Shown piece by piece: positions 5,879 through 47,945 of a stretch of DNA of 64,000 bases. The DNA is taken from the NCBI GenBank assembly GCA_902540805.1, contig CACBON010000001.1:85777-149776 (forward strand). The letters run 5' to 3'. The position numbers and the translations under genes are program-made. The notes beneath the pieces were generated by a model, which was given only the letters and a program-made list of their open reading frames with translations, was not told the DNA's origin and did not search any database. Positions within the stretch are counted from its first letter, which is position 1. The number at the start of each line of letters is the position of its first letter. The DNA is from an uncultured Alphaproteobacteria bacterium. GTDB taxonomy: Bacteria; Pseudomonadota; Alphaproteobacteria; Methylaequorales; Methylaequoraceae.

Positions 5879-5880
5879 TT

Positions 5881-6120: not shown

Positions 6121-6159
6121 GTTGAAAAAAAAATAATTTTATGTAATTTGATTTCTAAT

Positions 6160-6235
6160 GCCGCTTTAGCTCAGTTGGTAGAGCAACTGATTTGTAATCA
6201 GTGGGTCGGGAGTTCAAATCTCTCAAGCGGCACCA
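6160..6235 (+). tRNA. tRNA-Thr (anticodon UGU)
   Basis: Hand-folded cloverleaf: acceptor GCCGCTT/AAGCGGC, D-arm GCTC..GAGC, anticodon arm ACTGA-TTTGTAA-TCAGT, T-loop TTCAAAT, encoded CCA. Confidence 0.9.
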
Positions 6236-6348
6236 CTCTTTCCCCTACTCAGCTTGATATGCAACTAACAAATTTAGAGTGCCAAATTTGTTAATTAAAA
6301 TATTCATTCACACCACATGTAAATAAAAACTAAATAAGTCGTGAAAAC

Positions 6349-6912: not shown

Positions 6913-6981
6913 ATTGCCATTAAAGCACAAAAATTTATCTCATAAATTCTTTTTAATATTTTAAAAAGTATTAAAGAAACC

Positions 6982-23085: not shown

Positions 23086-23162
23086 GGCCCCGTAGCTCAG
23101 CTGGATAGAGCAACTGCCTTCTAAGCAGTAGGTCGTACGTTCGAATCGTACCGGGGTCGCCA
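23086..23162 (+). tRNA. tRNA-Arg (anticodon UCU)
   Basis: Cloverleaf: GGCCCCG/CGGGGTC acceptor, anticodon arm ACTGC-CTTCTAA-GCAGT, T-arm GTACG-TTCGAAT-CGTAC, encoded CCA. Confidence 0.9.
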
Positions 23163-24423: not shown

Positions 24424-24500
<77 letters not shown>

Positions 24501-24626: not shown

Positions 24627-25952
24627 GTGAAATTCAAATTACATCTGGCTATCTTAGCATTATTATCCTATCCCCTTATTTCAACCTCTGAAGAACTTTC
24701 CGATGTTCTGAAAGATGCATATAGTTTTTATCCTGACATTAAAAAAAGTAAAACAGAACTAAAAATTTCAGAAAAAGATTTAAAAATTTCAAAAACTGAT
24801 TTTCTACCATCCCTTGATTTTTCAGCTTCACAAGGAAGGAAAATTTCGAAAAGCAATCCTGATACATCTCGAATTAATGATAGCGCAATCAACCCAACTA
24901 CTTTCGACATAGATTTATCTCAACCACTAGGTTACACAAAAGCAATAAATTTCAAGCAAGCTAAAAATAATTTGAACATTGCAAAATTAAGCTTTTACGC
25001 TACAGTTCAAGATGTTTTATTTAAAGCTAGTAGAGCTTATTATACTGTCTTAAAAGATCATTTTCTTTTAGATGTTTCAAAGAGGAATGAAGAAACTCTT
25101 GAAAAAAAACTCGAAGCTACAGAAAAAAGGTTCGAATTTAAAGACGTAACTAAAACCGACGTGTTTCAGGCCAAAGCAAGGTTAGCAGGTGCCACGTCAA
25201 AAAGAATAGAAGCTGAAAATAATTTAGAAATTTCAATTTCTGACTTTAAAACAATTGTTGGTAGAGCTCCAAATATTAGATGGCTTGATTCTAATAATGC
25301 CCAAATTGTCGACGCTAATCCAAAAGATTGGTCAAAATTTGGAGAAATTCCAAAACTTCCAAAATCTTTGGATGATTCAATAAAAACGGGTTTAGAAAAG
25401 AACCCAGATTACAGAAAATTAAAATTACAACTTATGAACTCAAAATTGGATGTAAGAAAAAATAATTTAAATTTTGCACCCGAATTATCTTTGTCTGGAT
25501 CAGTAGGAAAATCACTCGATTCCTCTAGAACAATTGAAAGAACAGATTCATACTCAGTAACTGCTAATGTTACAGTTCCATTATTTAACAAAGGGCATAA
25601 TTTATTGAATTTAGAAAAATCCAAAGATTCTGCTCTTACAGTGATTAGATCAATTGAGACAAAAAAACTTGATTTGCAATTTCAAATTAATTCGGCATGG
25701 AAGAAAATAGAAAGTTCAAAATCAAGTATTGAATCTCTTGAAGTTTCTGTTGAATCAAATTTAATGGCAGTTGAGGGTGTAACTAAAGAAGCAAGTGTTG
25801 GTACCAGAACAACGTTAGAAATTCTAGATGCACAAAAAGATCTAACAGATTCTGAATCAAATTTAGTAAACGCTCAATATCAACTTATTATTTCATCCTT
25901 CGAATTATTGAAATTATGCGGAATTCTAAATTTCGAAACAATTGAAAAATAA
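24627..25952 (+). CDS. tolC: TolC-family outer-membrane efflux/secretion protein (T1SS locus A)
   Basis: 441 aa with a GTG start and signal peptide. Two-repeat TolC architecture with typical LP(S/E)L(D/S).S and coiled-coil segments. Confidence 0.85.
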   Translation: MKFKLHLAILALLSYPLISTSEELSDVLKDAYSFYPDIKKSKTELKISEKDLKISKTDFLPSLDFSASQGRKISKSNPDTSRINDSAINPTTFDIDLSQPLGYTKAINFKQAKNNLNIAKLSFYATVQDVLFKASRAYYTVLKDHFLLDVSKRNEETLEKKLEATEKRFEFKDVTKTDVFQAKARLAGATSKRIEAENNLEISISDFKTIVGRAPNIRWLDSNNAQIVDANPKDWSKFGEIPKLPKSLDDSIKTGLEKNPDYRKLKLQLMNSKLDVRKNNLNFAPELSLSGSVGKSLDSSRTIERTDSYSVTANVTVPLFNKGHNLLNLEKSKDSALTVIRSIETKKLDLQFQINSAWKKIESSKSSIESLEVSVESNLMAVEGVTKEASVGTRTTLEILDAQKDLTDSESNLVNAQYQLIISSFELLKLCGILNFETIEK

Positions 25953-26065: not shown

Positions 26066-27157
26066 ATGGCAGACTTTACTACACTGCCTCCTGACCTTAT
26101 GGATCTCGGCGATGCTGCAGGTACTGCTGCATTCGATGCGATGCAGGGCGGAGGTAGTTTTGACGAATGTATGACTGCAGCAATGGACGTTATGACGGAA
26201 GGTGGAATGCCACCTGAAATCATGGCAAACATGGCTGATACCGCTCAAGGTGCATACAACGATTTTATGGCTGAAAACCCTGGTGCAAGTGCAACAGAGG
26301 CCTTTGACGCTGTAACTGAGGTTATGGATACTCATTTAGACGGATGTCCTGACGGACCATGCACAGATTTTGGAGGTGACATGCCTCCAGTTCCGGACAT
26401 GGGACCAGGTGCTGATGCTCCCCCACCTCCGCCTCCGGGTGATTTACCAGGCGCTCCAGGTGATATGGCAGGCGGTCCCGCTATCGATCCAGCCACTGGA
26501 ATGGCGCCACAACCTCCTGAAGGCCCAGGTGAAGGTGGACCTCCTCCAGGGGATATGGCAGGACCAGACGGACCTCCTCCAGGCGACATGGCAGCAGGTG
26601 GACCAGAATTCGGACCAGCAACCCCTCCTCCTGATATGGGACCAGAGACAATGGGACCTGATGGACCTCCTCCAGGCATGGATATGGATGGAGACGGAAT
26701 GCCCCCTCCACCTCCAGGTGATATGGCAGGCGGTCCCGCTATCGATCCAGCCACTGGAATGGCGCCACAACCTCCTGAAGGCCCAGGTGAAGGTGGTTAC
26801 GATGACGGACCAGCACCAATGGACTATCCTCCAGACGGACCTCCTCCAGGTGAACCAGGAGGACCGGATCCATTATTTGGTGAAGGTGGACCAGCTGGTG
26901 GACCGCCACCACTTGACATGCCTCCAGGAGATCCAATGGGTGAACCAGGACCAATGGATGGCGGACCTGGTGCTCCAGGTGATATGCCTCCTGATGGAAT
27001 GGGCGATATGCATACTCATATGGACGATGCTGGAGCACATCATACACCAACAGACGGGCCTCCAATAGATCCTGCTGCTGGAATGGATCCAGGTGATATG
27101 CCTGCAGATATGCCTCCACCTCCTGACGATCCAAATGATGGTGGTGAGGTAGTCTAA
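26066..27157 (+). CDS. Acidic Pro/Gly/Met/Asp-rich low-complexity protein (candidate T1SS-A cargo); no signal peptide and no RTX repeats
   Basis: 363 aa with SD AAAGGA upstream. Ala/Met/Asp helical-looking N-terminal ~100 aa, then PPPGDMAG-type repeats, and a C-terminal Met/His cluster GDMHTHMDDAGAHH. Own terminator downstream. This frame is chosen over 6 overlapping ORFs because of the SD, the ATG and its consistent repeat sense. Confidence 0.7.
   Translation: MADFTTLPPDLMDLGDAAGTAAFDAMQGGGSFDECMTAAMDVMTEGGMPPEIMANMADTAQGAYNDFMAENPGASATEAFDAVTEVMDTHLDGCPDGPCTDFGGDMPPVPDMGPGADAPPPPPPGDLPGAPGDMAGGPAIDPATGMAPQPPEGPGEGGPPPGDMAGPDGPPPGDMAAGGPEFGPATPPPDMGPETMGPDGPPPGMDMDGDGMPPPPPGDMAGGPAIDPATGMAPQPPEGPGEGGYDDGPAPMDYPPDGPPPGEPGGPDPLFGEGGPAGGPPPLDMPPGDPMGEPGPMDGGPGAPGDMPPDGMGDMHTHMDDAGAHHTPTDGPPIDPAAGMDPGDMPADMPPPPDDPNDGGEVV
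26454..26538 (+). repeat. 85-bp exact direct repeat, copy 1 (copy 2 at 26712..26796)
   Basis: CTCCAGGTGATATGGCAGGCGGTCCCGCTATCGATCCAGCCACTGGAATGGCGCCACAACCTCCTGAAGGCCCAGGTGAAGGTGG occurs twice, 258 bp (86 codons) apart and in frame. It encodes PGDMAGGPAIDPATGMAPQPPEGPGEGG. Confidence 0.9.
26712..26796 (+). repeat. 85-bp exact direct repeat, copy 2
   Basis: Identical to 26454..26538 by direct reading. Confidence 0.9.
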
Positions 27158-27181
27158 AGCTATACTTCTTTAAGTAAAAAA

Positions 27182-27214
27182 CCCTCTCACAGTTTCTGAG
27201 AGGGTTTTTTTTTT
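27182..27214 (+). terminator. Rho-independent terminator between the cargo gene and the ABC gene
   Basis: 8-bp GC-rich stem CCCTCTCA / TGAGAGGG with a 7-nt loop, followed by T10. Confidence 0.8.
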
Positions 27215-27246: not shown

Positions 27247-29418
27247 ATGGAAGCCATGCGTGGATCTCAAAAATCAATTATTCTAGTTGCAAGACAACTT
27301 GGGGTTCATATTGGTCCAAACGATATTCCAGAAAGATTTCAAATTGAAGATAGAGAGCTAAGAATTTCTGAAATGTGTGACTTAGCTCATTCATTTGATT
27401 TAAAAGCAAAAGCAACCAAAATTAGCGAAAAGGAATTAGTAAAGCTCTTATCTAAAAAACAACAAATCTTAAGACTTAAAAATGGCAGATACATAATAGC
27501 GTTAAGAGTTATTCAAGGTGAAAAAGATGACGATAAGTCAGTTTTATGCCTTGATACTGGTGTAACAAGTCCTAAACCTCAACAAATTAATTTAAAAGAA
27601 TTAAAAAAAGGGTGGGATGGAGAAGTTATTCTATTAAAAGCTAAACTTAAAAAATTTGAAGAGGATAGCGAATTAAAAATTGGATGGTTAATTGGCGAAT
27701 CATTTAGAAATAAATCTGTTATGATTCAGGTTATAATAGTAGCTTTGATTTTGAACATTTTTGCAGTTATACCTGCTGTTTTCATGATGTTGGTGTTGGA
27801 TAAAGTTGTGAACTATGAAGCTTATTCAACTTTATATGTCATAACTTCAGGTGTTATTGTTGCGTATGTATTTAATGGAATACTTGGGTATTTAAAATCA
27901 TATCTTCTTGATTTTTTCTCACAAAAAGTTGAAGCAAAACTTTCAGTTAAAGTTTTTGAAAAATTAATTGCTTTACCAATGCAAAGGTTTCACAAAGAAT
28001 CCGCCACTTTTTTGAGATTCACAGGACAAATATCTCAGATAAAAAGCCTTTTGACTCAAAAAGTTTTCTCAACAGCACTAGACTCAATCAGTTTACTTGT
28101 TTTTGTTCCCATTCTATTTTTTTATAGTCCTTTACTATTTATTGTTGTGTTTTCATTCAGTATATTAGGAGCTTTAGCATCAATGTTTTACTCAAAAAAA
28201 CAAAGAGATTCTCTTGCTGGTTTAAGTAAGGCTGAATCAAAGAGACAAGAATTTATTTCTGTTGCTGTAAACGGAATCGAGAATGTGAAGGGACTTGCTC
28301 TTGAACCTAATTTGAAAGATCAGTGGAGAGATTTGGAAGCAAATTATATTATTGCAAATGAAGAAATGCAAAAAAAGTCAGCAGTTTTAAACAACATTTC
28401 ATCAACCATAAATCAACTTATGACTGCAATGGTTATTTTTGTCGGAGTGCATCTTGTATTTTCTGGATCTCTTTCAGCCGGAATTTTAGTAGGTTTTAAT
28501 ATGCTTGCTGGCAGAGTTTCAAAGCCAATAATTGATCTAGTTACGCTAAAAACAGAAATAACAAAATTAGTTCAATCCCTTCAGATCATATCAGGAATAG
28601 TGGATGCTAACACCGAAACAACTGTTAGAGGCCAAAAACCTCAACTCATGGGACAAGTTAGTTTTAAAAATGTTGAGTTTGGGTACGACGATAACACAAA
28701 AGTATTAAATGATATTGACATTGAAATTAACCCAAGACAGATAATTGGTATAACTGGTAAAAGTGGTTGTGGGAAAAGTACCATTGCAAAACTAATTCAA
28801 GGTTTATATAGACCGCAAGCTGGCATCGTAGCCCTTGATAATATAGATCTACGTCTATTGGACCTGAGTCACGTAAGATCACAGGTTTCATTAGTTGGAA
28901 CAGATAGTTATTTTTTTCCTGGAACAATAAGAGAAACAATAGCAAGTGCAATGCCAAATTCTTCAATGGACAGAATAACTTGGGCTGCAAAAAAAGTTTT
29001 CGCACATGAAGAAATTGAGTCTTATCCTGATGGATATGAAACATTCTTAGAAGAAAATGCTACAAATCTTGCAACTGGCTTAAGACAAAAACTAGCAATT
29101 GCCAGAGCACTTATTAGAAACCCTCGTATCATGATACTTGATGACGCTTTCACAGGTTTTGACGTTGACAGTGAAATAAAATTATACGATGCACTATCAG
29201 ATATTGCTCTTGGCAGAACGATAATTATCGTATCAAACAGGGTTTGGCACCTTCGACTTTGTAATAAAATCTTTGTACTTGAAAAGGGGAAAATATCTCA
29301 ACAGGGTTCTTTTGAAGAATTAAGACAAATTTCAGGTTATTTTGGTCAAACGTATAATAAGCAAATGTCTATTTTGGGAGTTGATAACAAAATTAAATCT
29401 ATAAAGAGGGCCGGGTAA
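27247..29418 (+). CDS. HlyB-type T1SS ABC protein with an N-terminal C39-like (non-catalytic) domain and degenerate ATPase motifs
   Basis: 723 aa: a ~160-aa N-terminal cytoplasmic domain ending KGWDGEVILLK, six-TM region, and an NBD with Walker A GKSGCGKST. Signature is LATGL (not LSGGQ), Walker B is ILDDA (Asp for the catalytic Glu), H-loop position is SNR, and the Q-loop is VGTD. Confidence 0.85.
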   Translation: MEAMRGSQKSIILVARQLGVHIGPNDIPERFQIEDRELRISEMCDLAHSFDLKAKATKISEKELVKLLSKKQQILRLKNGRYIIALRVIQGEKDDDKSVLCLDTGVTSPKPQQINLKELKKGWDGEVILLKAKLKKFEEDSELKIGWLIGESFRNKSVMIQVIIVALILNIFAVIPAVFMMLVLDKVVNYEAYSTLYVITSGVIVAYVFNGILGYLKSYLLDFFSQKVEAKLSVKVFEKLIALPMQRFHKESATFLRFTGQISQIKSLLTQKVFSTALDSISLLVFVPILFFYSPLLFIVVFSFSILGALASMFYSKKQRDSLAGLSKAESKRQEFISVAVNGIENVKGLALEPNLKDQWRDLEANYIIANEEMQKKSAVLNNISSTINQLMTAMVIFVGVHLVFSGSLSAGILVGFNMLAGRVSKPIIDLVTLKTEITKLVQSLQIISGIVDANTETTVRGQKPQLMGQVSFKNVEFGYDDNTKVLNDIDIEINPRQIIGITGKSGCGKSTIAKLIQGLYRPQAGIVALDNIDLRLLDLSHVRSQVSLVGTDSYFFPGTIRETIASAMPNSSMDRITWAAKKVFAHEEIESYPDGYETFLEENATNLATGLRQKLAIARALIRNPRIMILDDAFTGFDVDSEIKLYDALSDIALGRTIIIVSNRVWHLRLCNKIFVLEKGKISQQGSFEELRQISGYFGQTYNKQMSILGVDNKIKSIKRAG

Positions 29419-29424
29419 CTAAAT

Positions 29425-31149
29425 ATGGCTGAAAAAAAAAATATACAACCGGCTGTTAGAAATTTAGCTGCTGGTGATGTGCTTTTTAGAGAAGGTGAAG
29501 TTGGTGACTATGCCTATCAAATAGTAAAAGGAAAAATAGAGGTATGTAAATTCAACGGTGACGAATACGTCACTTTATCAATACTTGAAAAAGGCGCGTT
29601 GTTTGGAGAAATGGCATTAATTGACAAACAACCAAGAAGTGCAATGGCTAGAGCAACTGTTGAGACAACGGTAAAAGAAATTGATCAAAATGCTTTATTA
29701 GGCTATCTCAAAAACTCTCCTCAAACAGCTTTTAATATGATGCAGCAACTTGCAAGCTACGCTAGAAATGCAAACGAAAAATTGTCTGTGGATGCTTTTG
29801 AATCTGGAAATGAAAATGAAAATAACAAAGATCAAGAAGAAGTTTTAACTGAGGAGGAAAAAGAAAATAGATCAAAGAAAAAAATGATGAGTGAATTGTT
29901 GGATGAGTTTGATGACGATATTGATAGAATTAAAACAAAACAGGTACCTCGTTCAGTAAAAATGTCAGTTTATTCATTTGGTTTCCTAATTTTATTTTTA
30001 ATTACTTGGGGCACTATTTCCGAAATTGATACTACAATTTCTGCTTCTGGTAAAATTACCACCGTTGTTCCAAATGTAGAGGTGCAATCAAACTATAATT
30101 CTGTTGTCAAAGAAATACTTGTAAAAAAAGGCGAGAGTGTCAATCAAGGAGACCCACTCGTAACTTTCGATGCTACACTTCAAAGAGCGGATAAAATGAA
30201 ACTTGATTATCAGCTTTCAGTTGTAAATTCAAAAATTGACAGACTAAAAAAGCAATCATTGTTAAGGAATAATGTTTCGGTTGCAAACCCAAATGACGAA
30301 AGACAAAGCAGAATCTTCAAAGATAAAAAAGACCAATATTTAGCAAAGATTGCTTCATTAGATCAACAAATAGGTTCTACAGAAGACGATTTAAAGTTTA
30401 TCAAGGAACAACTTGATATACAAAAGCAGCTAGAAGATTCAAAGTTGGAGTTATTTGAACTTGATCTTGTAGCAGAGTCACAAGTTTTAGCTGAAAAAAA
30501 CAAAAGGTTATCTTTAGAAAAAGAATTCACAAAAACTAGCAATAAACTAAGCGAATTAAAATCTAATAGAAAAGAATATAATAGCCAATTTTTTGGAGGA
30601 ATAAACGATGAGCTTGTTGCATTAGAGGATCAAAGAATGTCGCTACAAGAAGATGTAAAAAAACTTGAAAGACAACAAACTGATGTAGTGGTGAGAGCGC
30701 CGTCTGACGGTATGATTCTAGACCTTCATTCTTTATATCCTGGAGCAGTAATAACACAAGGTAAAAGTGTTGTTACATTGGTACCAACAGGTGTGGAATT
30801 ATTAACTGTTTTTGATGTTGATCCCTCTGATATTAGCAAACTAATTCCGGATACGTCTGTTAAAATTCAACTTAATGCCCTTCCAGCACAAAAACACGGT
30901 GAGTTAAAAGGAAAGCTTATTTATGTTTCTGCTGACACAATTGATAAAGACGTCGATGGAAAACCAGGAAATTTTTATAGGGCTAGGGCTCAAATAACAG
31001 AAAATGAGTTAAAAGATATTCCTCCAGGATTTAATTTAATGCCAGGAATGAAAGTTTCAGGAAAGTTTAGAGTTGGGCAAAGAAGATTAATTACGTATTT
31101 TATTTATCCACTTATAAGAACTCTTGGTAATAGTTTTGCAGAACCATGA
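29425..31149 (+). CDS. HlyD-family T1SS membrane-fusion protein with an N-terminal cyclic-nucleotide-binding domain
   Basis: 574 aa. CNB domain with phosphate-binding cassette FGEMALIDKQPRSAMARA, an acidic linker, one TM (VYSFGFLILFLITWGTI), then HlyD lipoyl/coiled-coil/beta-barrel regions (GKITTVVPN...GDPLVTFD ... VRAPSDGMI). Confidence 0.85.
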   Translation: MAEKKNIQPAVRNLAAGDVLFREGEVGDYAYQIVKGKIEVCKFNGDEYVTLSILEKGALFGEMALIDKQPRSAMARATVETTVKEIDQNALLGYLKNSPQTAFNMMQQLASYARNANEKLSVDAFESGNENENNKDQEEVLTEEEKENRSKKKMMSELLDEFDDDIDRIKTKQVPRSVKMSVYSFGFLILFLITWGTISEIDTTISASGKITTVVPNVEVQSNYNSVVKEILVKKGESVNQGDPLVTFDATLQRADKMKLDYQLSVVNSKIDRLKKQSLLRNNVSVANPNDERQSRIFKDKKDQYLAKIASLDQQIGSTEDDLKFIKEQLDIQKQLEDSKLELFELDLVAESQVLAEKNKRLSLEKEFTKTSNKLSELKSNRKEYNSQFFGGINDELVALEDQRMSLQEDVKKLERQQTDVVVRAPSDGMILDLHSLYPGAVITQGKSVVTLVPTGVELLTVFDVDPSDISKLIPDTSVKIQLNALPAQKHGELKGKLIYVSADTIDKDVDGKPGNFYRARAQITENELKDIPPGFNLMPGMKVSGKFRVGQRRLITYFIYPLIRTLGNSFAEP

Positions 31150-33521
31150 TCAAATTAAAGCTAAGTTTTAGACTAATTGTTACTATTGCTTCATTAGTAA
31201 TGGCTATTCTTTTTGGTTTGATTCGTATAGCTGATCCTGAAATAGTAGAAGTTCTAAGACTAAAGTATTTTGATGTTCTTCAAAAAAAATTCCCAAGGTC
31301 TACGGATGGTCAAACTTATTCCGTAATAGTAGATATTGATGAAAAATCTCTCAGAGAAATTGGTCAATGGCCGTGGCCAAGAACTGTACTTGCTGATCTT
31401 TTTAAAAAATCTAAGGAATCAGGTATGCTTGTTTTAGGCCTAGATGTTCTATTTGCAGAAAAAGACAGAACTTCACCTGATTTAATTTCTCAAGATTTAG
31501 AAAAAAGAAACCCAACTATCGCCAAGTTATTAAGTGAACTTCCTTCTAATGAGTTTTTAGCCACAGAAGCTATGAATGACTTTCCTGTAGTAATCGGTCA
31601 CTCTGGTTTAGATGTTGAAGGTGATGCAAACAGAAATGATATAAACGATTCGTCTGTAAAAGTTTTTGTTGGTAAAGGTAAAAATCCGAAGGAATGGTTG
31701 ATATCTTATCCTGGATTGCTAGCTAATGTGACAGAGTTTGAAAAAGCTGCTTCTGGCTCCGGAACAGTGTCAGTTGCACAGGAACCTGATGGAATTATTA
31801 GAAGAGTACCCTTAATATCAAATGTTGCAGGTGAAATCAGACCAACTCTTGGGCTCGATATGATACGGGTTGCGTTTCAAGGAAATAGTATTGCCACAAG
31901 GACAGGTTTGACGGGAATTCAAGAAATAATAATTCAAACCAAGGCCATTGGAAATGCTGCCATTCCGACTGATGAGAATGGTAGAGTGTGGATTTATTAC
32001 GGTGATTCAGATGCTGGTAAAGTTAAAGAAGATACATCAAGATATTATGTAAGTGCAGTTGATATAATTAAAGGAAGAGTTGGGAAAGATAGATTACAAG
32101 GAAAACTTGGAATACTTGGCACATCGGCCACTGGATTAAAGGATATTAGACCCACGCCAGTCGATGAAAGAATGCCAGGTGTTGAAATTCATGCAAACCT
32201 TATTGATACCGTCATTTCAGCAATTCTTTATTATACATCTACAAAAAATTCTGAAAAAGTTTTTAAAGACGCATTAAAAAAAGGCTTAAGTGAAGAAGAA
32301 GCAATAATTGAAAAAAATAAAGTTAAAATTTCAGGATCTCCTTTTTTGAAATCCGGTGCAAATATGAAATTTTATGAATCACTATTTACAATTTTTCTAG
32401 CATTATTTATCACAATATCTGCATTAAAGTTTGGTCCAATTGTTAATATTTCATTACTTGTAACTATCATAAGTTCTGCTTTTTATATAAGTGTAAGGTT
32501 ATTTCTTGACCATAAAACTTTATTTGACCCAACCTTTGCAGGTGTAACAACTTTTGTAATTTATTTTGGTAACACCTTTGCAAACTACTTGCGAGATGCC
32601 AATGAGAAGAAACAGATAAGAGGTGCATTTTCACAATATCTATCCCCTGCTTTAGTAGAGCAATTAGCTGAAGATCCTGATAAATTAGTTTTGGGTGGAG
32701 AAACAAAAAAAATGACATTTCTTTTTTGTGATGTAAGAGGATTTACAACTATTTCAGAAGCTTTTAAGTCTGATCCTCAAGGCTTAACAAAACTTATTAA
32801 TAGGTTTTTAACTCCTCTTACTAATGAAATCATAAATAAAAACGGAACAATCGATAAATATATGGGAGATTGTATCATGGCTTTTTGGAATGCACCTATT
32901 GACGTCGAAAATCATGAGCAAGTTTCATGTGAAGCAGCATTAAGTATGCATAAAGCACTTAAAGAACTTAACGATATCAGAGAGCAAGAAGCAAAGTCAG
33001 ATAATAAAGATTTTTTAGAGTTAAAAATTGGAATTGGACTAAATACAGGAGGTTGTGTTGTTGGAAATATGGGGTCAGATCAAAGGTTTGATTATTCTGT
33101 GTTAGGAGACGCTGTCAATTTAGCTTCACGTCTTGAAGGTCAATCAAAAGGTTATGGCGTTAAAACAGTTATTGGACAAGAAACAAACGATGCTATTAAA
33201 GATACTTTTGCTACACTCCAACTTGATATGTTAGCAGTTAAAGGTAAAAAAGAAGCTGTTTCAATTTTTTGTTTACTTGGTGACCCCAGTTTTAAAAAAA
33301 GCCAGGATTTCAAAACCCTTGAAATAAAGCACAAAAACATATTAAATAACTATTTCAATCAAAATTGGGGAGAAGCTATGGAGGAAATGACTCAGGCAAA
33401 AACACTTTGTAAAAACTTGATGAAAGATTATTATGAAATGATGACAGATAGAATTAATGAATATAAAAAGTCTCCTCCGCCAAAAGATTGGGATGGTGTT
33501 TTTGTTGCAACCTCAAAATAA
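31146..33521 (+). CDS. CHASE2-sensor class III adenylate/guanylate cyclase (adenylate-type specificity residues)
   Basis: 791 aa. N-terminal TM, CHASE2 hallmark DIDEKSLREIGQWPWPR, three TMs, then a cyclase domain FLFCDVRGFTTISE...DKYMGDCIMAFWNAP...RFDYSVLGDAVNLASRLEG. ATGA overlap with the upstream gene. Confidence 0.9.
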   Translation: MIKLKLSFRLIVTIASLVMAILFGLIRIADPEIVEVLRLKYFDVLQKKFPRSTDGQTYSVIVDIDEKSLREIGQWPWPRTVLADLFKKSKESGMLVLGLDVLFAEKDRTSPDLISQDLEKRNPTIAKLLSELPSNEFLATEAMNDFPVVIGHSGLDVEGDANRNDINDSSVKVFVGKGKNPKEWLISYPGLLANVTEFEKAASGSGTVSVAQEPDGIIRRVPLISNVAGEIRPTLGLDMIRVAFQGNSIATRTGLTGIQEIIIQTKAIGNAAIPTDENGRVWIYYGDSDAGKVKEDTSRYYVSAVDIIKGRVGKDRLQGKLGILGTSATGLKDIRPTPVDERMPGVEIHANLIDTVISAILYYTSTKNSEKVFKDALKKGLSEEEAIIEKNKVKISGSPFLKSGANMKFYESLFTIFLALFITISALKFGPIVNISLLVTIISSAFYISVRLFLDHKTLFDPTFAGVTTFVIYFGNTFANYLRDANEKKQIRGAFSQYLSPALVEQLAEDPDKLVLGGETKKMTFLFCDVRGFTTISEAFKSDPQGLTKLINRFLTPLTNEIINKNGTIDKYMGDCIMAFWNAPIDVENHEQVSCEAALSMHKALKELNDIREQEAKSDNKDFLELKIGIGLNTGGCVVGNMGSDQRFDYSVLGDAVNLASRLEGQSKGYGVKTVIGQETNDAIKDTFATLQLDMLAVKGKKEAVSIFCLLGDPSFKKSQDFKTLEIKHKNILNNYFNQNWGEAMEEMTQAKTLCKNLMKDYYEMMTDRINEYKKSPPPKDWDGVFVATSK

Positions 33522-33534: not shown

Positions 33535-33975
33535 ATGAGTTTAAAAAAGATTAGAGTTCTTCCAGATCAATATATCGTTCGAGAGGGTGAAGTTGGGGAA
33601 ACTGCTTTCTTAGTTATCTCAGGTGGATTAATCGCAGAAATTAAAGGAAAAAAAATAGGTAAAATTGAAACAGGTGAAATCTTTGGAGAACTTTCCTTAA
33701 TTCTTGGCGAAAACAGAACTGCAAGCGTAAAAGCAGTTGTCCCAAGTGAAGTTGTTGAAATAAAAAGAAAGGCATTAGAGGCTATTTTGTTATCGTCAAA
33801 TATAGATTTGCATAAAATTATTAACGAAATGTCAAAGGAATTAGGAAAGTCTGACGACCAAAAACTTCCTATTACCAAAGCTGATCTTTTAAAACTTACC
33901 AAAGACTCTCCTAACGTAATAAGAGCTCTAGCATTACAGATTCATTATAGATTATCTCAAAGGATATTCTCTTGA
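33535..33975 (+). CDS. Stand-alone cyclic-nucleotide-binding domain protein (no HTH)
   Basis: 146 aa with PBC FGELSLILGENRTASVKA. Too short for a CRP-type DNA-binding domain. Confidence 0.8.
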   Translation: MSLKKIRVLPDQYIVREGEVGETAFLVISGGLIAEIKGKKIGKIETGEIFGELSLILGENRTASVKAVVPSEVVEIKRKALEAILLSSNIDLHKIINEMSKELGKSDDQKLPITKADLLKLTKDSPNVIRALALQIHYRLSQRIFS

Positions 33976-34439
33976 AAGAAGTTAGTCACGGAAAAACAAC
34001 AAAAGTTTTAATGCTAGAAGGAGAAACACTTTTTAATCAAGGTGATAAGGGTAATAAAGCTTACATGATAGTTCAAGGAGCTCTTGATGTAGTAGTTGAT
34101 GGAAAAAAAGTCGGTTCTATGAGAGATGGAGAGGTTTTTGGTGAAATGGCTTTAATTTTAAAACAAAACAGAAGCGCAACAATTACATCAAGTCAATCCA
34201 CAGAGTTGATATCCATTAGTAAAGAAAATCTTGATGAGCTTATTAATTCTGGTTCAAAAGCTGCTCAGAGGATAATTAGAGATTTATGTGAAGAACTCGC
34301 CAAAAGGACTGAATTTCAAAAAGTACTTTATTCACATAAGGAAATAGATGAGATAATAGCGTCAGAGAATCAAATAATACAAAAAATCACAAAACAAATT
34401 CTTTATAGATTAGAGCGGTCAACAAGTCATGTTGAATAA
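33972..34439 (+). CDS. Stand-alone cyclic-nucleotide-binding domain protein (no HTH)
   Basis: 155 aa with PBC FGEMALILKQNRSATITS. TTG start overlapping the upstream TGA (TTGA). Confidence 0.75.
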   Translation: MKEVSHGKTTKVLMLEGETLFNQGDKGNKAYMIVQGALDVVVDGKKVGSMRDGEVFGEMALILKQNRSATITSSQSTELISISKENLDELINSGSKAAQRIIRDLCEELAKRTEFQKVLYSHKEIDEIIASENQIIQKITKQILYRLERSTSHVE

Positions 34440-34476: not shown

Positions 34477-36174
34477 ATGAAATATTCAGATTATATTCAT
34501 GAATCAGAGATTAATCATAAATCTTTAAGTTATAATCTTCTCACTCCGAAGGCAACCAAAGGAAAACCCCTAAAGCCTCAAAAAATTAAAGTATCTCCTG
34601 CCAAGGCATTGACTCTGTTAGCCCCATACACAATTTCCAGAGTTATGGAGCAAATCAAAGCAGTTGTTCCACTTGCAGCATATTTATTTCTATTTCAACT
34701 TTTAATTCTAAGACAACCAATCTCTTCAGCGACCACAATTTGTCTAGGATTGATTGCAGTAATAATAGGCCTAGCAATTTTTATGGAGGGTCTTAAAACC
34801 GGTTTAATGCCATTTGGCAATGTAATTGGAGATACATTACCAAAAAAAGCACCTATGGTTCTTGTTTTAATTATTATTGGAATACTAGGAGTTGGGGTAA
34901 CTTATGCGGAACCAGCTATCGGAGCACTCAAAGCTTTTGGTTCGTCAATAAATCCACAGGACGCACCATATCTCTATGAGATACTCAACAATAGAAGTGA
35001 AACCTTAGTTGTAATGGTCGGTGCTGGCGTTGGACTAGCTGCTATCATTGGAACAATAAGGTTTGTAAAAGGTTGGTCTCTTAAACCTATGATTTATGCG
35101 GCTCTTGCACCAACAATAATTCTTACTGCATATGTATGGAGTAACCCTGATTTAAGAACTATTCTTGGATTAGCTTGGGATTGCGGAGCTGTTACTACTG
35201 GACCAGTTACTGTACCTCTTGTGCTATCACTAGGTATTGGAATTGCAGCATCAGCTGGCAAAGGAGATTCATCTCTTTCTGGTTTTGGCGTTGTTACAAT
35301 GGCTTCATTATTTCCAATTATCGCTGTTCTGATTCTTGCCATACACGTTTCTCAAACAATCTCAGTTGAGGAAATAATTGCTTCGACTGATATGGCTTCA
35401 GATATGGCCATAGGAGAGGTTTCTAAGTGGTCACAAACCCCGTTTGTTGAGATTATTGGAGGAGTCAGAGCAATACTTCCACTTGTAATATTTTTAATGA
35501 TTGTGCTTTTTGTAATCCTTAAATCTAAACTTCCTAATAATATGATAACAACTTATGGGCTAACTTTGTCCATTGTTGGAATGTGTGTCTTCAATATAGG
35601 TCTTACATATGGTTTAGGAGCAATAGGTGGCCAAGCTGGAACTAATCTTCCTGCTGCCTTTATGGAAGTTCCTGTAAGTGAAGTATCACCAATTTATAAC
35701 GAATTATTAGGTTTAACTATAGTAATCCTTTTCGCTTGGCTTTTAGGATTTGGCGCAACTCTTGCTGAGCCTGCACTTAATGCTCTTGGTTTAACAGTTC
35801 AAGAGCTCACAAATGGTGCCTTCAAAAAGTCAATGTTAATGTATAGTGTTGCCGGGGGCGTTGCATTTGGGATAGCCTTAGGTGTAGGAAAAATTGTCTT
35901 TGCTTTTGACTTAGCAACAGTTTTAATACCACTTTATCTTCTTGCAATTGTTTTAACTTACTTTTCAACTGAAGAATTTGTTAATGTCGCCTGGGATAGC
36001 GCTGGAGTCACAACCGGTCCTGTAACTGTACCACTTGTTTTGGCAATGGGTCTTGGTTTAGGAAATGCTGTATCCGCCACTGAGGGTTTTGGCATTCTAT
36101 CTATGGCAAGTATTTGTCCAATTCTTGCTGTACTCTTAATGGGACTATATATACAATTTAAACAAAAAAAATAA
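34477..36174 (+). CDS. Polytopic membrane protein with two DUF1538 domains
   Basis: 565 aa, about 12+ TMs. Duplicated signature AWDCGAVTTGPVTVPLVLSLGIG / AWDSAGVTTGPVTVPLVLAMGLG. Confidence 0.8.
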   Translation: MKYSDYIHESEINHKSLSYNLLTPKATKGKPLKPQKIKVSPAKALTLLAPYTISRVMEQIKAVVPLAAYLFLFQLLILRQPISSATTICLGLIAVIIGLAIFMEGLKTGLMPFGNVIGDTLPKKAPMVLVLIIIGILGVGVTYAEPAIGALKAFGSSINPQDAPYLYEILNNRSETLVVMVGAGVGLAAIIGTIRFVKGWSLKPMIYAALAPTIILTAYVWSNPDLRTILGLAWDCGAVTTGPVTVPLVLSLGIGIAASAGKGDSSLSGFGVVTMASLFPIIAVLILAIHVSQTISVEEIIASTDMASDMAIGEVSKWSQTPFVEIIGGVRAILPLVIFLMIVLFVILKSKLPNNMITTYGLTLSIVGMCVFNIGLTYGLGAIGGQAGTNLPAAFMEVPVSEVSPIYNELLGLTIVILFAWLLGFGATLAEPALNALGLTVQELTNGAFKKSMLMYSVAGGVAFGIALGVGKIVFAFDLATVLIPLYLLAIVLTYFSTEEFVNVAWDSAGVTTGPVTVPLVLAMGLGLGNAVSATEGFGILSMASICPILAVLLMGLYIQFKQKK

Positions 36175-36189
36175 TTAAAGGAAACAATT

Positions 36190-36546
36190 ATGGCCAGAGA
36201 TATCACTTATTTAACAGACGTTTTTTTAATCACTTGTGTTGTTGAAAGTGGTCTTGCCGACAAAATCATTGATGCAGCCACAAATGTTGGAGCACAAGGT
36301 GCAACAATTAACTATGCCAGGGGTACTGGCATTAGAAATAGAATGGGACTTCTTGGTGTAACTATAGACGAGCAAAAGGAAATAATAAGAATTATTGTTT
36401 CTAAAGAACAATCGAATAGAGTTTTTGAATCAATGTACTTAGCTGGAAATCTCGATACACCTGGGAAAGGAATAATGTGGATGGTTAAACTTGACAGAGT
36501 TGCGACTCATATACCTAAAGATGTCATTAAACGAGCCGGAGGGTAA
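36190..36546 (+). CDS. PII-like signal-transduction protein
   Basis: 118 aa. PII-like beta-alpha-beta pattern with a T-loop-like ARGTGIRNRMGLLG. Canonical neighbour of DUF1538 genes. Confidence 0.7.
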   Translation: MARDITYLTDVFLITCVVESGLADKIIDAATNVGAQGATINYARGTGIRNRMGLLGVTIDEQKEIIRIIVSKEQSNRVFESMYLAGNLDTPGKGIMWMVKLDRVATHIPKDVIKRAGG

Positions 36547-36548
36547 GT

Positions 36549-36848
36549 ATGTCAAAATTCGTTGAAATTGGTGGCTTAATAAAAAAAGGTTTAGGACAAA
36601 AAGTTGTTAAAAAGTTTTCTGAAAACTCAGACGTTATTTCAGTGGGTTATGCTAATGGAAGAGCCACAGACATGTTTGACATACAGCAATTTGGTGACGC
36701 TAGTGAAGCAGATATTCTTACTCTCATCGTCAAAGAAAGAAAAGGAAATGTTATCTTTGATGAGCTTTACAAGCATTTAAAACTCAATTCTCAAAAAAAC
36801 GGCGTGATTTTCAAATCTGAAACAATTGCAAAATCTTCTGTAAAATAA
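36549..36848 (+). CDS. Second, divergent PII-like protein
   Basis: 99 aa, 2 nt after the previous gene, with an ANGRATDMF loop. The family call is tentative. Confidence 0.5.
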   Translation: MSKFVEIGGLIKKGLGQKVVKKFSENSDVISVGYANGRATDMFDIQQFGDASEADILTLIVKERKGNVIFDELYKHLKLNSQKNGVIFKSETIAKSSVK

Positions 36849-36849
36849 T

Positions 36850-38121
36850 TTATCTTTCGGATAATGCAAAGCTAGCACCAGTTATAAAAGGAGTTAGGAA
36901 ATAATCCATAAAACTTCTTTTACCAGTTATAATTCCAACCATAACTGGAACACCAGACAAAAGTCTATATTCCTCGTTTTTTCGTGCAAAAGAGTTTTCA
37001 GAAGTTTCCACCTTAACTAAATAAAAACCCTCTTCATCTTTATTAGAAATTCTGTCAGCACCTACAAAAACAACCTTCCCTTTTATTGATCTAAACCTAG
37101 AGCCTTCAGGAGTATTTAGTCTAATTTTTGCTTCAAGGTTTTTTTTTACGTAACCAATTTCTGATAAAGGTAATTTTGCCTCAATGATTAGTTTTTCGTT
37201 TTCAGGTACAATTTCAACAACAGTTACGCCAGGAGCGACTATAGCTCCTTTAGAATTTACTGACACAAGTTTTATTGTTCCAGACACAGGGCTTTTTAAA
37301 ACAGTTCTATTTAAACTATCTGAATATTTCTGAATTCTTTTATTAAGTTCTTCTTTTTCTTTTCGGTACTGTGACAACTCGATATTTAAATCTTCTATGT
37401 AATTGTTTTGCACTTTTTCTAAGTCATTCTTGCTCAAATCAATAATAGATTGTTGTTCGTCGATACTCCCTTCAACCTCCTGCCTTTCTCTTAAAATTTC
37501 TAAATGCTTTAACCTATTTGTTGCTTCAACTTCTAACAATTTTTGACTAATATCTTCTTGTTCTTTAACGATTTTTAATCTTTTTTTTAAATTTTTGAGA
37601 TTTTTATTAGCTTTATCAATACTTGCTTTCTTGGACTTTATTTCAGAGTTGATTGCTTTTCTTCTACTTTGAAAAAGTTCATTTTCAGATTTTACTAATT
37701 CCTTGTCAAATAAATTATTTATATTTTCAGGAATTTCTATTGAATTATCAGAATTTATTTCAGAATTAACTCTAAGTATTGACAGATCAATTGATTTAAG
37801 TCTTGAATTAATTTCCTCAAATTCAGAGCTTGCTTTTTCTTTTGATAAAACTACTAAAGGCTGATTTATTTCAACTTTTTCACCTTCACTAATTAGTATT
37901 TCTTCAACTATTCCACCCTCTAAATGTTGCACATACTTCATTCTTCCTTGGGGTATTATTTTTCCATCAGCTAAGCTTAATACCTCAATAATTTTTAAAT
38001 TCACTAGTAGCAAAAAAATAAGTGAAAAAAGAATTAATGATACTTTTAGTCTTTTACTAATAACGTTTTTTGGTTTTTCATCGTTTTTAAATAAATTCCA
38101 TTTTACCCATTTCTCTGTCAT
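36850..38121 (-). CDS. HlyD-family T1SS membrane-fusion protein (locus B)
   Basis: 423 aa. N-terminal TM, GKIIPQGRMKYVQHLEGGIVEEILISEGEKVEINQPLV, a long coiled coil, and a C-terminal barrel (SPVSGTI...). Confidence 0.9.
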   Translation of the reverse strand: MTEKWVKWNLFKNDEKPKNVISKRLKVSLILFSLIFLLLVNLKIIEVLSLADGKIIPQGRMKYVQHLEGGIVEEILISEGEKVEINQPLVVLSKEKASSEFEEINSRLKSIDLSILRVNSEINSDNSIEIPENINNLFDKELVKSENELFQSRRKAINSEIKSKKASIDKANKNLKNLKKRLKIVKEQEDISQKLLEVEATNRLKHLEILRERQEVEGSIDEQQSIIDLSKNDLEKVQNNYIEDLNIELSQYRKEKEELNKRIQKYSDSLNRTVLKSPVSGTIKLVSVNSKGAIVAPGVTVVEIVPENEKLIIEAKLPLSEIGYVKKNLEAKIRLNTPEGSRFRSIKGKVVFVGADRISNKDEEGFYLVKVETSENSFARKNEEYRLLSGVPVMVGIITGKRSFMDYFLTPFITGASFALSER

Positions 38122-38125
38122 TTTT

Positions 38126-39715
38126 TCACCCTAAATTAGTTTGTTTATCACTTAATTTAATAATTTCAGAATCTTCTGAAAAACAAATTACGGTTTTTCC
38201 AGCTCTTTTTAATGAGGCTATCAATTTGAGTATCATATTTTTACCTAATTTATCTAGATATAATAACGGATCATCAAAAATATAAACTTGATAAGTTTTT
38301 GAAATCGACCGTGCAATATGTATTTTTTTTAAAATCCCTTTTGAATAATTTTTATTTATAGAATCAGTTATAGTTAAATCTGATTTTTTTAACTCTTTAT
38401 CTAATCCAACATTTTGAAGCAGTCTACTTACCTCTTGTTCATTCAGATCAGGGTTGGATATTAAAATATTATTTAAAATTGATGAATTTAACACTTCAAC
38501 ATCTTCTGGTATATAAGCTACTTGATTCTTATACCATTGCAATGATAGTTTCTCCAAATTAGTTTCATCTAATAAAATATCACCAGATTCTGGATTAATT
38601 AGTCCCATAAGTAATTTTGCAATTGTGGTCTTTCCCGAGCCATTCGATCCGCTAATAACTGAAATTTCTGATGAATTAAAATTAGCAGAGAAATTTTTAA
38701 TTATATACTTATTATCATTATCAAAAGAGTAGTTTACATTTTTAAGTTTATAATTCCCTATAATTTTACTTAGTTGCATACCCTCAACTCTATTTTTAGA
38801 GTTTTTGAAAAAATCTTGGCAATCATTAAGATACATATTTGTTCTCTCAATAATAGAATATGAATTTTGTGCTGATGAAATTGAACCCAATGCTCGAGTA
38901 GCAAATATATTAAATCCTATGAGGCTTCCAATAGTAAGATTTCCGTTTACGACAAAGATACTCCCAAATCCAATAGTAATGATTGATGATAATAAAACAA
39001 AAAAACTCGTTGTGGAGATTTGTTGAGCATCAAAATTTGCGGTTGAAGAGTCAATTTTTAATTTTTTATTTAAGTAATTTTCTAGATAATATCCAGAATA
39101 TTTAAATGCTAAAGTAGATTTTAAAAGCTCTTGATTAGTTCCAATCTCTTTAATTATTAATTTATCATTCTTAGATAAATTTAATTTTTCCAGGTTTAGA
39201 TTTTTATTTTTTATTAATCTTTGTTGCAATAACAAGAAAATAATAACAAGAATTAAAAAAATTGTTGCCAATAATAGGTCCAGAAAAAAAAGAATAATAA
39301 TAATCAAAGTTGCAAAAATTGAGTCGAGAAGATTTGACTGAACTTTGGGTGATAAGAATTGAAAAAAATTATTATTGAAATCAATTATTTCAACAAAATT
39401 TCTTTTTGAGGTTTTATTTTCTCTCTCAAAAAATGTTTTGATTAGGTCTAATTTAAAAAATTTTATTGGATTTATGAGAAGTTCACATAAGATTTTACTC
39501 CTTATATTCCTAAATATATACTCGAATACTGCAACTAAAAGAGCACCTGATAATAGAAAAAACAATGTTCCCTGAAGGCCGAATGCAATATATCTATTAA
39601 AAATGTGAATAATAAAGATTGGGCTTAATAAACCCATTATAGTGATAAAAAAAGTCAATAAAAGAATAGTATTTAGGGATTTACTTTCTTTTAATATGTG
39701 AAACCAAAACTTCAT
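38126..39715 (-). CDS. T1SS-type ABC protein (TMD+NBD, no N-terminal peptidase domain) with degenerate ATPase motifs
   Basis: 529 aa. Walker A GSNGSGKTT is intact. Signature is YSKGI, Walker B is IFDDP, the Q-loop is IPED, and the H-loop position is FSED. Confidence 0.8.
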   Translation of the reverse strand: MKFWFHILKESKSLNTILLLTFFITIMGLLSPIFIIHIFNRYIAFGLQGTLFFLLSGALLVAVFEYIFRNIRSKILCELLINPIKFFKLDLIKTFFERENKTSKRNFVEIIDFNNNFFQFLSPKVQSNLLDSIFATLIIIILFFLDLLLATIFLILVIIFLLLQQRLIKNKNLNLEKLNLSKNDKLIIKEIGTNQELLKSTLAFKYSGYYLENYLNKKLKIDSSTANFDAQQISTTSFFVLLSSIITIGFGSIFVVNGNLTIGSLIGFNIFATRALGSISSAQNSYSIIERTNMYLNDCQDFFKNSKNRVEGMQLSKIIGNYKLKNVNYSFDNDNKYIIKNFSANFNSSEISVISGSNGSGKTTIAKLLMGLINPESGDILLDETNLEKLSLQWYKNQVAYIPEDVEVLNSSILNNILISNPDLNEQEVSRLLQNVGLDKELKKSDLTITDSINKNYSKGILKKIHIARSISKTYQVYIFDDPLLYLDKLGKNMILKLIASLKRAGKTVICFSEDSEIIKLSDKQTNLG

Positions 39716-39767
39716 AATGTTATTTTATAATATCACTCTCTTACCTTCAAAATAACCATATAACAAC

Positions 39768-42434: not shown

Positions 42435-42505
42435 ACCACTGTTAATGCTATGTTTACGACATAAAAGGAAATTTATTTAGTTGAAAGCTCTATTATTCAG
42501 GAACT

Positions 42506-45781: not shown

Positions 45782-45836
45782 ATCCAGTTTAACTATAGGC
45801 TAAATACTACTATTTTAAAAGTTAAAAAGGCCTAAT

Positions 45837-47153: not shown

Positions 47154-47222
47154 ACTACAATTTATCCACAACTTATTGACTGTGAATAACTTAAAACGAC
47201 AATTTCTTACATTAGTTTATTT

Positions 47223-47945
47223 TTAACATGATTTTTTTGAATAATCTAGATATAAACTTTTTCCCTCTAAAAGTTTTAGGAAATTTGAAAAAAGTAGTTC
47301 TGAGTTATCATTATACCTTATTTCCTGTTTCAGCCTTCCAGCGAGTTGCAATCCAACTTGAGGACCAAACATTAAAGATGATAAGATATCAGCGTCTAAA
47401 ATTATTTTTTCAAGATCATCTTTTACATTTTCAGGTTTTACTGGGAAAAAGGTACTCTCAAATATTCTCTTGATCCTCTTCAATTCTTTAAAATTAAAGA
47501 CTTTCTTGAATAAAATTTTTTCTAATCCGTCATAACTTTTTAATTCTTGATAGTAGGGCTTGCTCATGAGTATCCTCCTACCCTGATGATTCATATCATG
47601 AGTGAGGGCTATTATGACTAATAAAAGCCTATCTTTATATTTTAAATTTATCTGTTTTCCTAATATGCATGAAATTACCAAAACTGACTTAAAGTGATGG
47701 GAATCATGGTATGTATTGAAACAGGTATTTCTTAAACATAATTTTGATAATTTTCTAATAATAGATTTATAGTCTTTTAACTTAAAAACTTTTAGCTCTT
47801 TTAAACATATAATTGCTATCGAGTATAAATCTGGTTGTTTATGATTTGACAAAACATATTTTTTTAAAATACATTTTGTTCTAGGCCAATTCTTAACTAT
47901 GTAATTTAAACTTGGTAAACCTTTATCTAACGGAAGATTCCTCAT
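47223..47945 (-). CDS. HD-superfamily phosphohydrolase with class-I cyclic-nucleotide-phosphodiesterase-like motifs
   Basis: About 240 aa from the ATG at 47945, which forms an ATGA overlap with the cyclase stop. NTYHDSHHFKSV then, ~35 aa later, ALTHDMNHQG (compare PDE YHNxxHAxDV ... HDxxHxG), and a later DADILSS. Confidence 0.5.
   Translation of the reverse strand: MRNLPLDKGLPSLNYIVKNWPRTKCILKKYVLSNHKQPDLYSIAIICLKELKVFKLKDYKSIIRKLSKLCLRNTCFNTYHDSHHFKSVLVISCILGKQINLKYKDRLLLVIIALTHDMNHQGRRILMSKPYYQELKSYDGLEKILFKKVFNFKELKRIKRIFESTFFPVKPENVKDDLEKIILDADILSSLMFGPQVGLQLAGRLKQEIRYNDNSELLFSNFLKLLEGKSLYLDYSKKSC

Follow-up and report, generated by a model that had tools for sequence, protein, structure and literature searches.

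The 64,000-nucleotide stretch of contig CACBON010000001.1 analysed here (hereafter the window), which comes from an uncultured alphaproteobacterium of the Methylaequoraceae, encodes a membrane-fusion adaptor of the HlyD family with a cyclic-nucleotide-binding (CNB) domain at its N-terminus. The 574-aa protein is read from one uninterrupted open reading frame (ORF; positions 29425..31149, + strand), and its gene follows an ABC exporter gene after 6 nt, with a TolC-family gene two genes further upstream. By every sequence test the N-terminal domain belongs to the CNB family. The remainder of the protein is, by sequence, a member of the adaptor family of type I secretion systems (T1SSs), for which a role in secretion is predicted. 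With slightly better than even confidence, we read the locus as a cAMP-responsive T1SS of the HlyB/HlyD/TolC type, in which the CNB-bearing adaptor takes part in the export of a protein devoid of Lys and Arg that is encoded upstream of the ABC gene.

A cyclic-nucleotide-binding domain on a HlyD-family adaptor

The CNB domain occupies aa 11-120 (29455..29784, + strand), where a beta-sandwich is followed by the B and C helices, and it is recovered by Pfam, by searches of the PDB and by AlphaFold. Pfam cNMP_binding (PF00027) matches aa 12-97 at E=1.2e-19, scoring 70.5 bits against a cutoff of 27.5, matches to CNB domains in the PDB reach E=2e-23, and TIGR03896 gives a weak match (E=3e-7). The initial annotation, made from the letters of the window, had described a CNB domain with the Glu and Arg that contact the cyclic phosphate, and both residues are found, as Glu62 and Arg71, inside the phosphate-binding cassette (PBC) FGEMALIDKQPRSAMARA (aa 60-77; 29602-29655, + strand). 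This cassette aligns with functional sites of PKG, PKA and Crp. Among 43 representatives of the fusion family at 25-39% identity, conservation is at least 90% for Glu62, Arg71, Ala73 and Ala75, and the same level extends over the whole cassette (FGEMALID..PRSA.ARA).

The larger, C-terminal part of the protein passes the curated cutoff of the NCBIfam model TIGR01843 (type_I_hlyD), with 218.9 bits against 208.65 over aa 176-573, whereas its scores with the NCBIfam models for DevB, RND and EmrA are far below the respective cutoffs. In addition, Pfam HlyD_3 matches aa 422-535 (E=4e-15). Among solved structures, E. coli HlyD from the HlyB/D complex is the closest by sequence (8DCK chain C; query residues 169-571 against HlyD residues 49-475, E=1e-26), and Foldseek searches with a predicted model of the adaptor matched EmrA, MacA and HlyD with E-values down to 7e-17.

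This model was obtained with AlphaFold, which the initial annotation had proposed as a check, using 23 homologues, and has a mean pLDDT of 75. It places the beta-sandwich at aa 11-86, the B and C helices at aa 88-120, a linker at aa 121-142, a cytoplasmic helix at aa 143-171 and the transmembrane (TM) helix at aa 176-198, with the lipoyl domain, the helical hairpin and the beta-barrel thereafter. The expected CNB domain, disordered linker, helix, TM segment and adaptor fold are thus all recovered; confidence in the CNB domain itself is moderate (pLDDT 60-80). The linker (29785..29850, + strand) is modelled as disordered, with a pLDDT of ~30, and lies in an acidic stretch (aa 118-178) with a pI of 4.5, in agreement with the acidic linker that had been noted from the sequence. 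Its length varies across the family, and the reading frame is always kept.

The linker leads into a charged cytoplasmic helix and the TM helix (together 29851..30018, + strand), both of which are supported by AlphaFold, hydropathy and alignment. Conserved residues in this stretch read ELLDEFDxDIDRI and EFxxDIDxxxxRxxP. Hydropathy analysis gives aa ~177-198 as the sole hydrophobic segment, and since residues rich in Lys and Arg precede it, the N-terminus and the CNB domain are assigned to the cytoplasmic side. The periplasmic part (30019..31146, + strand) comprises the lipoyl domain, the alpha-helical hairpin (aa 251-416) and the beta-barrel. The earlier description of a cytoplasmic CNB domain in front of a single TM helix and an ordinary HlyD periplasmic region therefore stands.

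E. coli HlyD (8DCK, 7SGR, 5C21) provides the closest point of comparison. It shares with the window adaptor the single N-terminal TM helix, the lipoyl domain, the long alpha-hairpin and the beta-barrel, a short charged cytoplasmic segment, a TolC partner and a gene position directly after that of a HlyB-type ABC protein bearing a C39-like domain (CLD). The window adaptor differs from it by ~140 extra N-terminal residues, is 22-23% identical to it over the HlyD crystal fragment (Foldseek) and is accompanied by a candidate cargo that is not of the RTX type. Because residue 169 of the query falls opposite residue 49 of HlyD, the canonical cytoplasmic segment of HlyD is retained, and the CNB domain with its linker constitutes an addition to the N-terminus rather than a replacement of it.

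The segments of the adaptor gene also differ in how they change over time. Codon changes counted against a relative at 83% identity are 42 synonymous and 9 non-synonymous in the CNB segment and 163 and 59, respectively, in the HlyD part, whereas over aa 121-175, which cover the linker, 11 changes are synonymous and 24 non-synonymous. The ratio of non-synonymous to synonymous changes is lowest in the CNB segment, meaning that constraint is strongest on the sensor and weakest on the tether, and this pattern indicates that the CNB segment is translated in this frame and is under purifying selection.

A type I secretion cassette and a candidate cargo without Lys and Arg

The adaptor gene is part of a string of genes on the + strand that runs from the TolC gene through a 363-aa ORF, a terminator-like hairpin, the ABC gene, the CNB-HlyD fusion, a gene for a cyclase with a CHASE2 sensor, two CNB genes and a DUF1538 gene to the genes for a P-II-like and a 99-aa protein. 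From the ABC gene onward the spacers measure 0-40 nt, and the same gene order is found in relatives. The 6-nt gap behind the ABC gene and the overlap of the cyclase start codon with the adaptor stop codon (ATGA) point to co-translation, and no terminator-like site was seen on the + strand between 27247 and 36848. An Rfam scan of the window returned only tRNAs, with no riboswitch or leader upstream of the operon, and a promoter scan yielded fewer sites than shuffled sequence.

The ABC exporter (723 aa; 27247..29418, + strand) is HlyB-like, with Pfam matches to Peptidase_C39 (E=1e-5), ABC_membrane and ABC_tran, and type_I_sec_HlyB is its best NCBIfam match, of which it appears to be a divergent member. 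Its N-terminal C39-like domain is degenerate. When this domain was aligned to HlyB (8DCK/3ZUA), Gly6 was found opposite HlyB Y9, which marks the Cys position, and Tyr opposite H83; with Gly and Tyr at the catalytic Cys and His positions, the CLD would be a substrate-docking domain and not a peptidase, as far as this weak alignment (E=0.05) can tell. The first gene of the string encodes the TolC-family outer-membrane channel (441 aa; 24627..25952, + strand; Pfam OEP, E=3e-56), which scores 224 bits with TIGR01844 (type_I_sec_TolC), just below the cutoff of 225.15; this gene is syntenic in the relatives L001-L003, L006 and L007. For a wider comparison, loci were gathered with an alignment of a 10-sequence subset of the fusion family, and in every locus compared the ABC gene lies directly upstream of the fusion.

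Composition and a conserved position upstream of the ABC gene single out the 363-aa protein (26066..27157, + strand) as the probable cargo. It contains no Lys and no Arg, consists of Pro (24%), Gly (20%), Asp (14%) and Met (10%) to a large part, has a net charge of ~-67 and ends in ...DDPNDGGEVV; the pI of the family is ~4.1. Its gene has a GC content of 49-59% in a genome of ~30% GC. All 47 of its 47 database homologues are unnamed or annotated as 'hypothetical', and every intact one likewise has neither Lys nor Arg. The N-terminus (...MPPEMEAF.EA.GD.AM...ADPSAAF) is conserved among them, and the C-terminus is acidic with hydrophobic end residues (...DDPxDDVV or ...GGEVV). No Pfam family was detected in the 363-aa protein at E<0.01. 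RTX repeats (PF00353) likewise gave no Pfam match at this threshold, and scanned homologues have 0-1 GxGxD motifs each; the missing PF00353 repeats rule out an RTX-type substrate, although acidity and a hydrophobic C-terminal end are features in common. A simple tandem array as the source of the unusual composition was also ruled out, as a repeat search in the gene returned only one short, imperfect 21-nt repeat.

Of the 16 fusion loci that provide enough upstream sequence, 14 have an ORF free of Lys and Arg on the same strand immediately before the ABC gene, the exceptions being L008 and L012. By comparison, in 774 kb of unrelated loci the same criterion is passed by just 4 of 3100 stop-free segments. 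Unexpectedly, this ORF accompanies the ABC and fusion genes far more consistently than the cyclase does. Relatives of the candidate cargo are located at 1793-2845 in L009, 6679-7668 in L014, 4891-6615 in L015, 6155-7060 in L017 and 1-1275 in L022, while L020 encodes two such proteins in tandem (5470-6726 and 6993-7553); in some members Met accounts for up to 20-23% of residues. The Rhodospirillaceae locus L015 also contains, between the cargo and ABC genes, a gene for a 245-aa CNB-domain protein (6745-7482, - strand), whose size and domain suggest a Crp/Fnr-type regulator.

In the window, the candidate cargo and ABC genes are separated by the terminator-like hairpin, a strong one with a 14-bp stem followed by a T-run (27176..27210, + strand). 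The hly operon has an attenuator between hlyA and hlyB, and by analogy the hairpin is likely to act as one. Considering the conserved upstream position and this resemblance to the hlyA/hlyB layout, the Lys/Arg-free protein is most simply explained as the cargo of the ABC/adaptor/TolC set. As a matter of speculation, its composition rich in Met and Asp would suit an extracellular binder of metal (e.g. Cu) or a polyanionic matrix protein. Since a protein without Lys and Arg offers no tryptic sites, trypsin-based (meta)proteomics would be expected to miss it.

Cyclase coupling, proposed mechanism and alternative explanations

The gene coupled to that of the adaptor encodes a CHASE2 sensor joined to a class III cyclase (791 aa; 31146..33521, + strand; Pfam CHASE2 E=2e-46, Guanylate_cyc E=1e-19). 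In the PDB, the catalytic domain is matched best by P. aeruginosa CyaB (3R5G, E=1e-33), and in the aligned motifs FCDVRGFT, GTIDKYMGD and DYSVLGDAVNLASRLE the metal-binding Asp pair and the Asn and Arg transition-state residues are in place. The adenine-specifying Lys is present (GTIDKYMGD), whereas the guanylate cyclase Cya2 (2W01) has Glu at this position; at the second specificity position the window enzyme has Ser and CyaB has Thr. These residues predict an adenylate cyclase of the IIIb type. CyaB, one of the membrane-anchored class IIIb adenylate cyclases, lacks the CHASE2 domain, and the window enzyme further differs from it in that its gene is translationally coupled to that of a T1SS adaptor. 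A class III cyclase is encoded no more than 10 kb away from the fusion in 9 of 20 loci, namely in all six of the window clade, where it is adjacent, in two of SAR116 (L022, L009) and in one of UBA4588 (L020). Cyclase adjacency as a universal feature of the fusion was therefore rejected.

Substrate recognition and assembly require the cytoplasmic domains of T1SS adaptors (PMC8277102), and TolC recruitment requires the R34EKDE38 motif of HlyD, which is in contact with HlyB (bioRxiv 10.1101/2025.05.27.656419). Both reports are consistent with the premise of the initial annotation that the cytoplasmic N-terminus of the adaptor handles substrate sensing and TolC recruitment. Its proposal that a second-messenger receptor at this site would make channel assembly ligand-dependent gains strength from the genes behind that of the adaptor, namely the overlapping one for the adenylate-type CHASE2 cyclase and a further pair of CNB genes. 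Judging from the alignment, the equivalent of R34EKDE38 would be expected at aa ~150-165 of the window adaptor, a few tens of residues past the linker. In the mechanism that we propose, the T1SS would be dedicated to the export of an acidic, disordered protein rich in Pro, Gly and Met and free of Lys and Arg, and the translationally coupled CHASE2 cyclase would turn an extracytoplasmic cue into cAMP. If the stoichiometry of HlyD holds, six adaptors would position up to six CNB domains under the inner-membrane complex. Binding of cAMP to these tethered domains would alter their contact with the cytoplasmic helix of the adaptor or with the CLD or nucleotide-binding domain of the ABC protein, and the altered contact would gate cargo engagement, TolC recruitment and export. 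That cAMP is the ligand, and that its binding modulates secretion, be it by activation or by inhibition, rather than something else, is what we infer. More tentatively, we suggest that the locus may represent an undescribed class of T1SS in marine Alphaproteobacteria, including SAR116, in which the adaptor would itself be a cAMP receptor, a cue sensed by CHASE2 would license assembly without transcription, and the cargo would belong to a new family of disordered proteins free of Lys and Arg.

Several findings weigh against a cAMP-gated T1SS. A cyclase within 10 kb is not present in 11 of the 20 fusion loci, which makes the cyclase link lineage-specific, and the other lineages would need cyclases encoded elsewhere. 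The cassette loop is modelled by AlphaFold at a pLDDT below 50, and the closest PDB matches by sequence are sites of cGMP-dependent kinases. The cassette residues cannot separate cAMP from cGMP, and the preference for cAMP is for this reason argued from the residues of the cyclase. On the side of the exporter, the ABC protein scores 488 bits with TIGR01846 and does not pass the cutoff of 725.55, and its CLD aligns only weakly to that of HlyB, as noted above. The disordered and fast-evolving linker speaks against a rigid allosteric lever, and tethered docking and undocking is the mode of action that such a floppy connection favours. Lastly, the CNB domain of HetC from Nostoc PCC 7120 is required in vivo and binds ppGpp in vitro (PMC10986499), which means that a CNB fold is no guarantee of a cyclic-nucleotide ligand.

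One alternative, which we regard as unlikely but serious, is that cAMP is bound without gating export, the CNB domain serving as a membrane-anchored buffer or scaffold, or tuning only the ATPase rate of the ABC protein or the stability of the complex. A flexible, fast-evolving linker would suit a tethered interaction module of this kind, and the cytoplasmic segment that the adaptor shares with canonical HlyD is intact. Moreover, the operon encodes two further CNB proteins with intact cassettes and no output domain. The first (146 aa; 33535..33975, + strand; Pfam E=1e-14; PBC FGELSLILGENRTASVKA) is 28% identical to the CNB domain of the adaptor; the second (155 aa; 33972..34439, + strand; Pfam E=2e-17; PBC FGEMALILKQNRSATITS) is 32% identical to it, begins at a TTG codon that overlaps the stop codon of the first and is found only in the closest relatives, L001, L007 and L010. 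Against a mere buffer or scaffold, the fusion is kept together with the same ABC protein and cargo in lineages without the adjacent cyclase and the small CNB genes, which ties the CNB domain to the secretion machine itself.

Somewhat less probable still, in our judgement, is that the CNB domain is a receptor for another small molecule, such as ppGpp, 2-oxoglutarate or a different nucleotide, and that secretion is linked to nutritional or stringent status. The HetC domain, which binds ppGpp with a Kd of 59 uM (PMC10986499), sets a precedent, folds of the CNB/Crp type accommodate diverse effectors, and the loci without a nearby cyclase would be accounted for. Set against this, the Glu, the Arg and the whole cassette are conserved at the level given above and match bona fide cyclic-nucleotide sites, and in the window clade a gene for an adenylate-type cyclase is translationally coupled to that of the adaptor.

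We see little room for a third explanation, in which the ABC/adaptor/TolC set is an efflux pump for small molecules or lipids of the MacAB/DevBCA type and the Lys/Arg-free ORF is unrelated to it. It could accommodate an ABC protein that stays below the curated HlyB-family cutoff, a cargo without RTX repeats or a known family, and the two loci, L008 and L012, that have no upstream ORF. It is opposed by the adaptor scores, which exceed the TIGR01843 cutoff and fall far short of those for DevB, RND and EmrA, by the HlyB-type CLD of the ABC protein, and by the cargo gene, whose linkage to the exporter in 14 of 16 loci contrasts with a background of ~0.1% and whose product has a T1SS-like acidic C-terminus. 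Finally, that the fusion is an annotation or assembly artefact, created by joining the genes of a small CNB protein and an ordinary HlyD, is effectively refuted: unfused HlyD and stand-alone CNB genes do occur in other Rhodospirillales, and Met154 and Met155 lie in frame upstream of the TM helix, but there is no in-frame stop and no Shine-Dalgarno-like sequence before Met154, the linker remains in frame whatever its length, and the ORF is continuous in more than 600 independent sequences at 25-99% identity from single-cell genomes, metagenome-assembled genomes (MAGs) and long-read assemblies, in keeping with the initial annotation, which had seen neither an in-frame stop nor a second Shine-Dalgarno sequence.

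A cAMP-responsive T1SS of the kind favoured here would have partial counterparts among known systems. With HetC, the CNB-bearing peptidase-containing ABC exporters (PCATs) of cyanobacteria and TIGR03896 ('bacteriocin-type transport-associated protein') it shares a CNB domain in a component of an ABC/HlyD-type exporter of peptides or proteins. In those systems the domain is on the ABC/peptidase component, the peptidase is active and the reported ligand is ppGpp, whereas in the window it is the adaptor that bears the domain, the ABC protein has a degenerate C39-like domain and the gene of an adenylate-type cyclase is adjacent. In the LapD/LapG system, the cyclic di-GMP receptor LapD controls a periplasmic protease and the retention of the adhesin LapA at TolC. 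There, as proposed for the window, a nucleotide messenger controls T1SS output via a dedicated inner-membrane receptor encoded alongside; the messenger of LapD is cyclic di-GMP and not a cyclic mononucleotide, and LapD is a separate protein and not a domain of the adaptor. The placement of the sensor on the adaptor is thus what differs from known systems. Targeted full-text literature searches found no description of a T1SS adaptor bearing a CNB domain, the HetC paper being the sole relevant match, and public sources label the fusion proteins merely 'HlyD family (type I) secretion protein'.

T1SSs are usually assumed to be competent at all times, regulation acting on transcription or on the cargo, and the coupling of substrate binding to TolC recruitment by the adaptor tail is a step still to be explained. 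If the proposed mechanism is true, it would exemplify post-translational control by a second messenger at the level of the adaptor and provide a switchable system in which to dissect the assembly step, possibly also an inducible secretion module for biotechnology. The uncharacterised family of Lys/Arg-free cargo proteins adds to the interest beside the assembly step.

Distribution of the fusion family and neighbouring genes

A word-index search returned 650 proteins, and the top 120 of these are 572-579 aa long, at least 83% identical and all equipped with PF00027 and adaptor domains. More than 600 database proteins of 570-590 aa have both domains. In an exhaustive search of representatives at 50% identity, ~40 clusters align end to end at 26-39% identity, and all 43 aligned representatives have the CNB domain and HlyD_3. 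Overall, the fusion family of marine Alphaproteobacteria amounts to at least 42 clusters when grouped at 50% identity and to hundreds when grouped at 90%. Full-length fusions were found in SAR116, Magnetococcales, Rhodospirillaceae, Magnetovibrio, Nisaea, UBA4588, an unclassified MAG and the clade of the window. A local check of 130 full-length, top-scoring HlyD representatives identified an N-terminal CNB domain in 42. The expectation that a fusion to the adaptor would be rare was borne out in one respect and not in another: such fusions make up a small minority of HlyD-type clusters, but they form an old and widespread family. The adaptor gene of the window is identical to a copy in the marine single-cell genome AG-349-G20, and relatives at 74-76% identity carry the label Rickettsiales.

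In a neighbour-joining tree of the HlyD parts, the CNB-bearing adaptors form a few clades that are separate from the majority of plain HlyDs. The tree has no support values, its sample is biased by score and some tips counted as lacking a CNB domain are fragments; a single origin of the fusion is not settled by it. An unfused arrangement, in which a plain HlyD gene is followed by a stand-alone CNB gene, was found in L025, L026 and L028-L030, whose hosts are other Rhodospirillales and Methylocystaceae. These loci hint at an unfused version of the same HlyD-CNB partnership, and they are weak evidence because the design of the search enriches for such cases. At L026 (4885-12123), two ABC genes are present, one of which encodes a 1012-aa protein with a long Pro-rich N-terminal extension, together with a plain 460-aa HlyD and, ~400 nt downstream, a 163-aa stand-alone CNB protein with an intact cassette.

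Downstream of the small CNB genes in the window follow, at tight spacing, the genes for a DUF1538 membrane protein, a P-II-like protein and a 99-aa protein (34477..36848, + strand; Pfam). This trio may belong to the same transcript as the CNB genes, and its tie to the secretion system is uncertain. The same trio was found within 10 kb of the cassette in Magnetovibrio (L014, 3888-6298) and UBA4588 (L020, 1922-4298). Some P-II-like proteins bind adenine nucleotides including cAMP, and the signalling module of the cassette may act on the trio as well, or the arrangement may just reflect conserved synteny.

Converging on these genes is a second T1SS block on the - strand (36850-50248). It contains a plain HlyD (36850-38121), an ABC protein without a CLD (38126-39715), two proteins with a FecR domain and RTX repeats (39768-42434 and 42506-45781), a second TolC (45837-47171), a 250-aa unknown protein and a class III cyclase of GAF-GAF-PAS architecture (47942-50248). 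Two T1SSs, two cyclases and three CNB domains are thus encoded in ~27 kb. The system occurs in marine Alphaproteobacteria seen in many ocean metagenomes, here in a genome type of ~1.5 Mb, and the share given over to these genes implies that regulated export matters to the cells. Just left of the TolC gene of the first system, a Sel1-repeat gene lies between tRNA-Arg(TCT) (23086-23162, + strand) and tRNA-Pro(TGG) (24424-24500, - strand). Despite these tRNA genes there is no sign of recent mobility, as the synteny of the island is kept in relatives at 74-83% identity.

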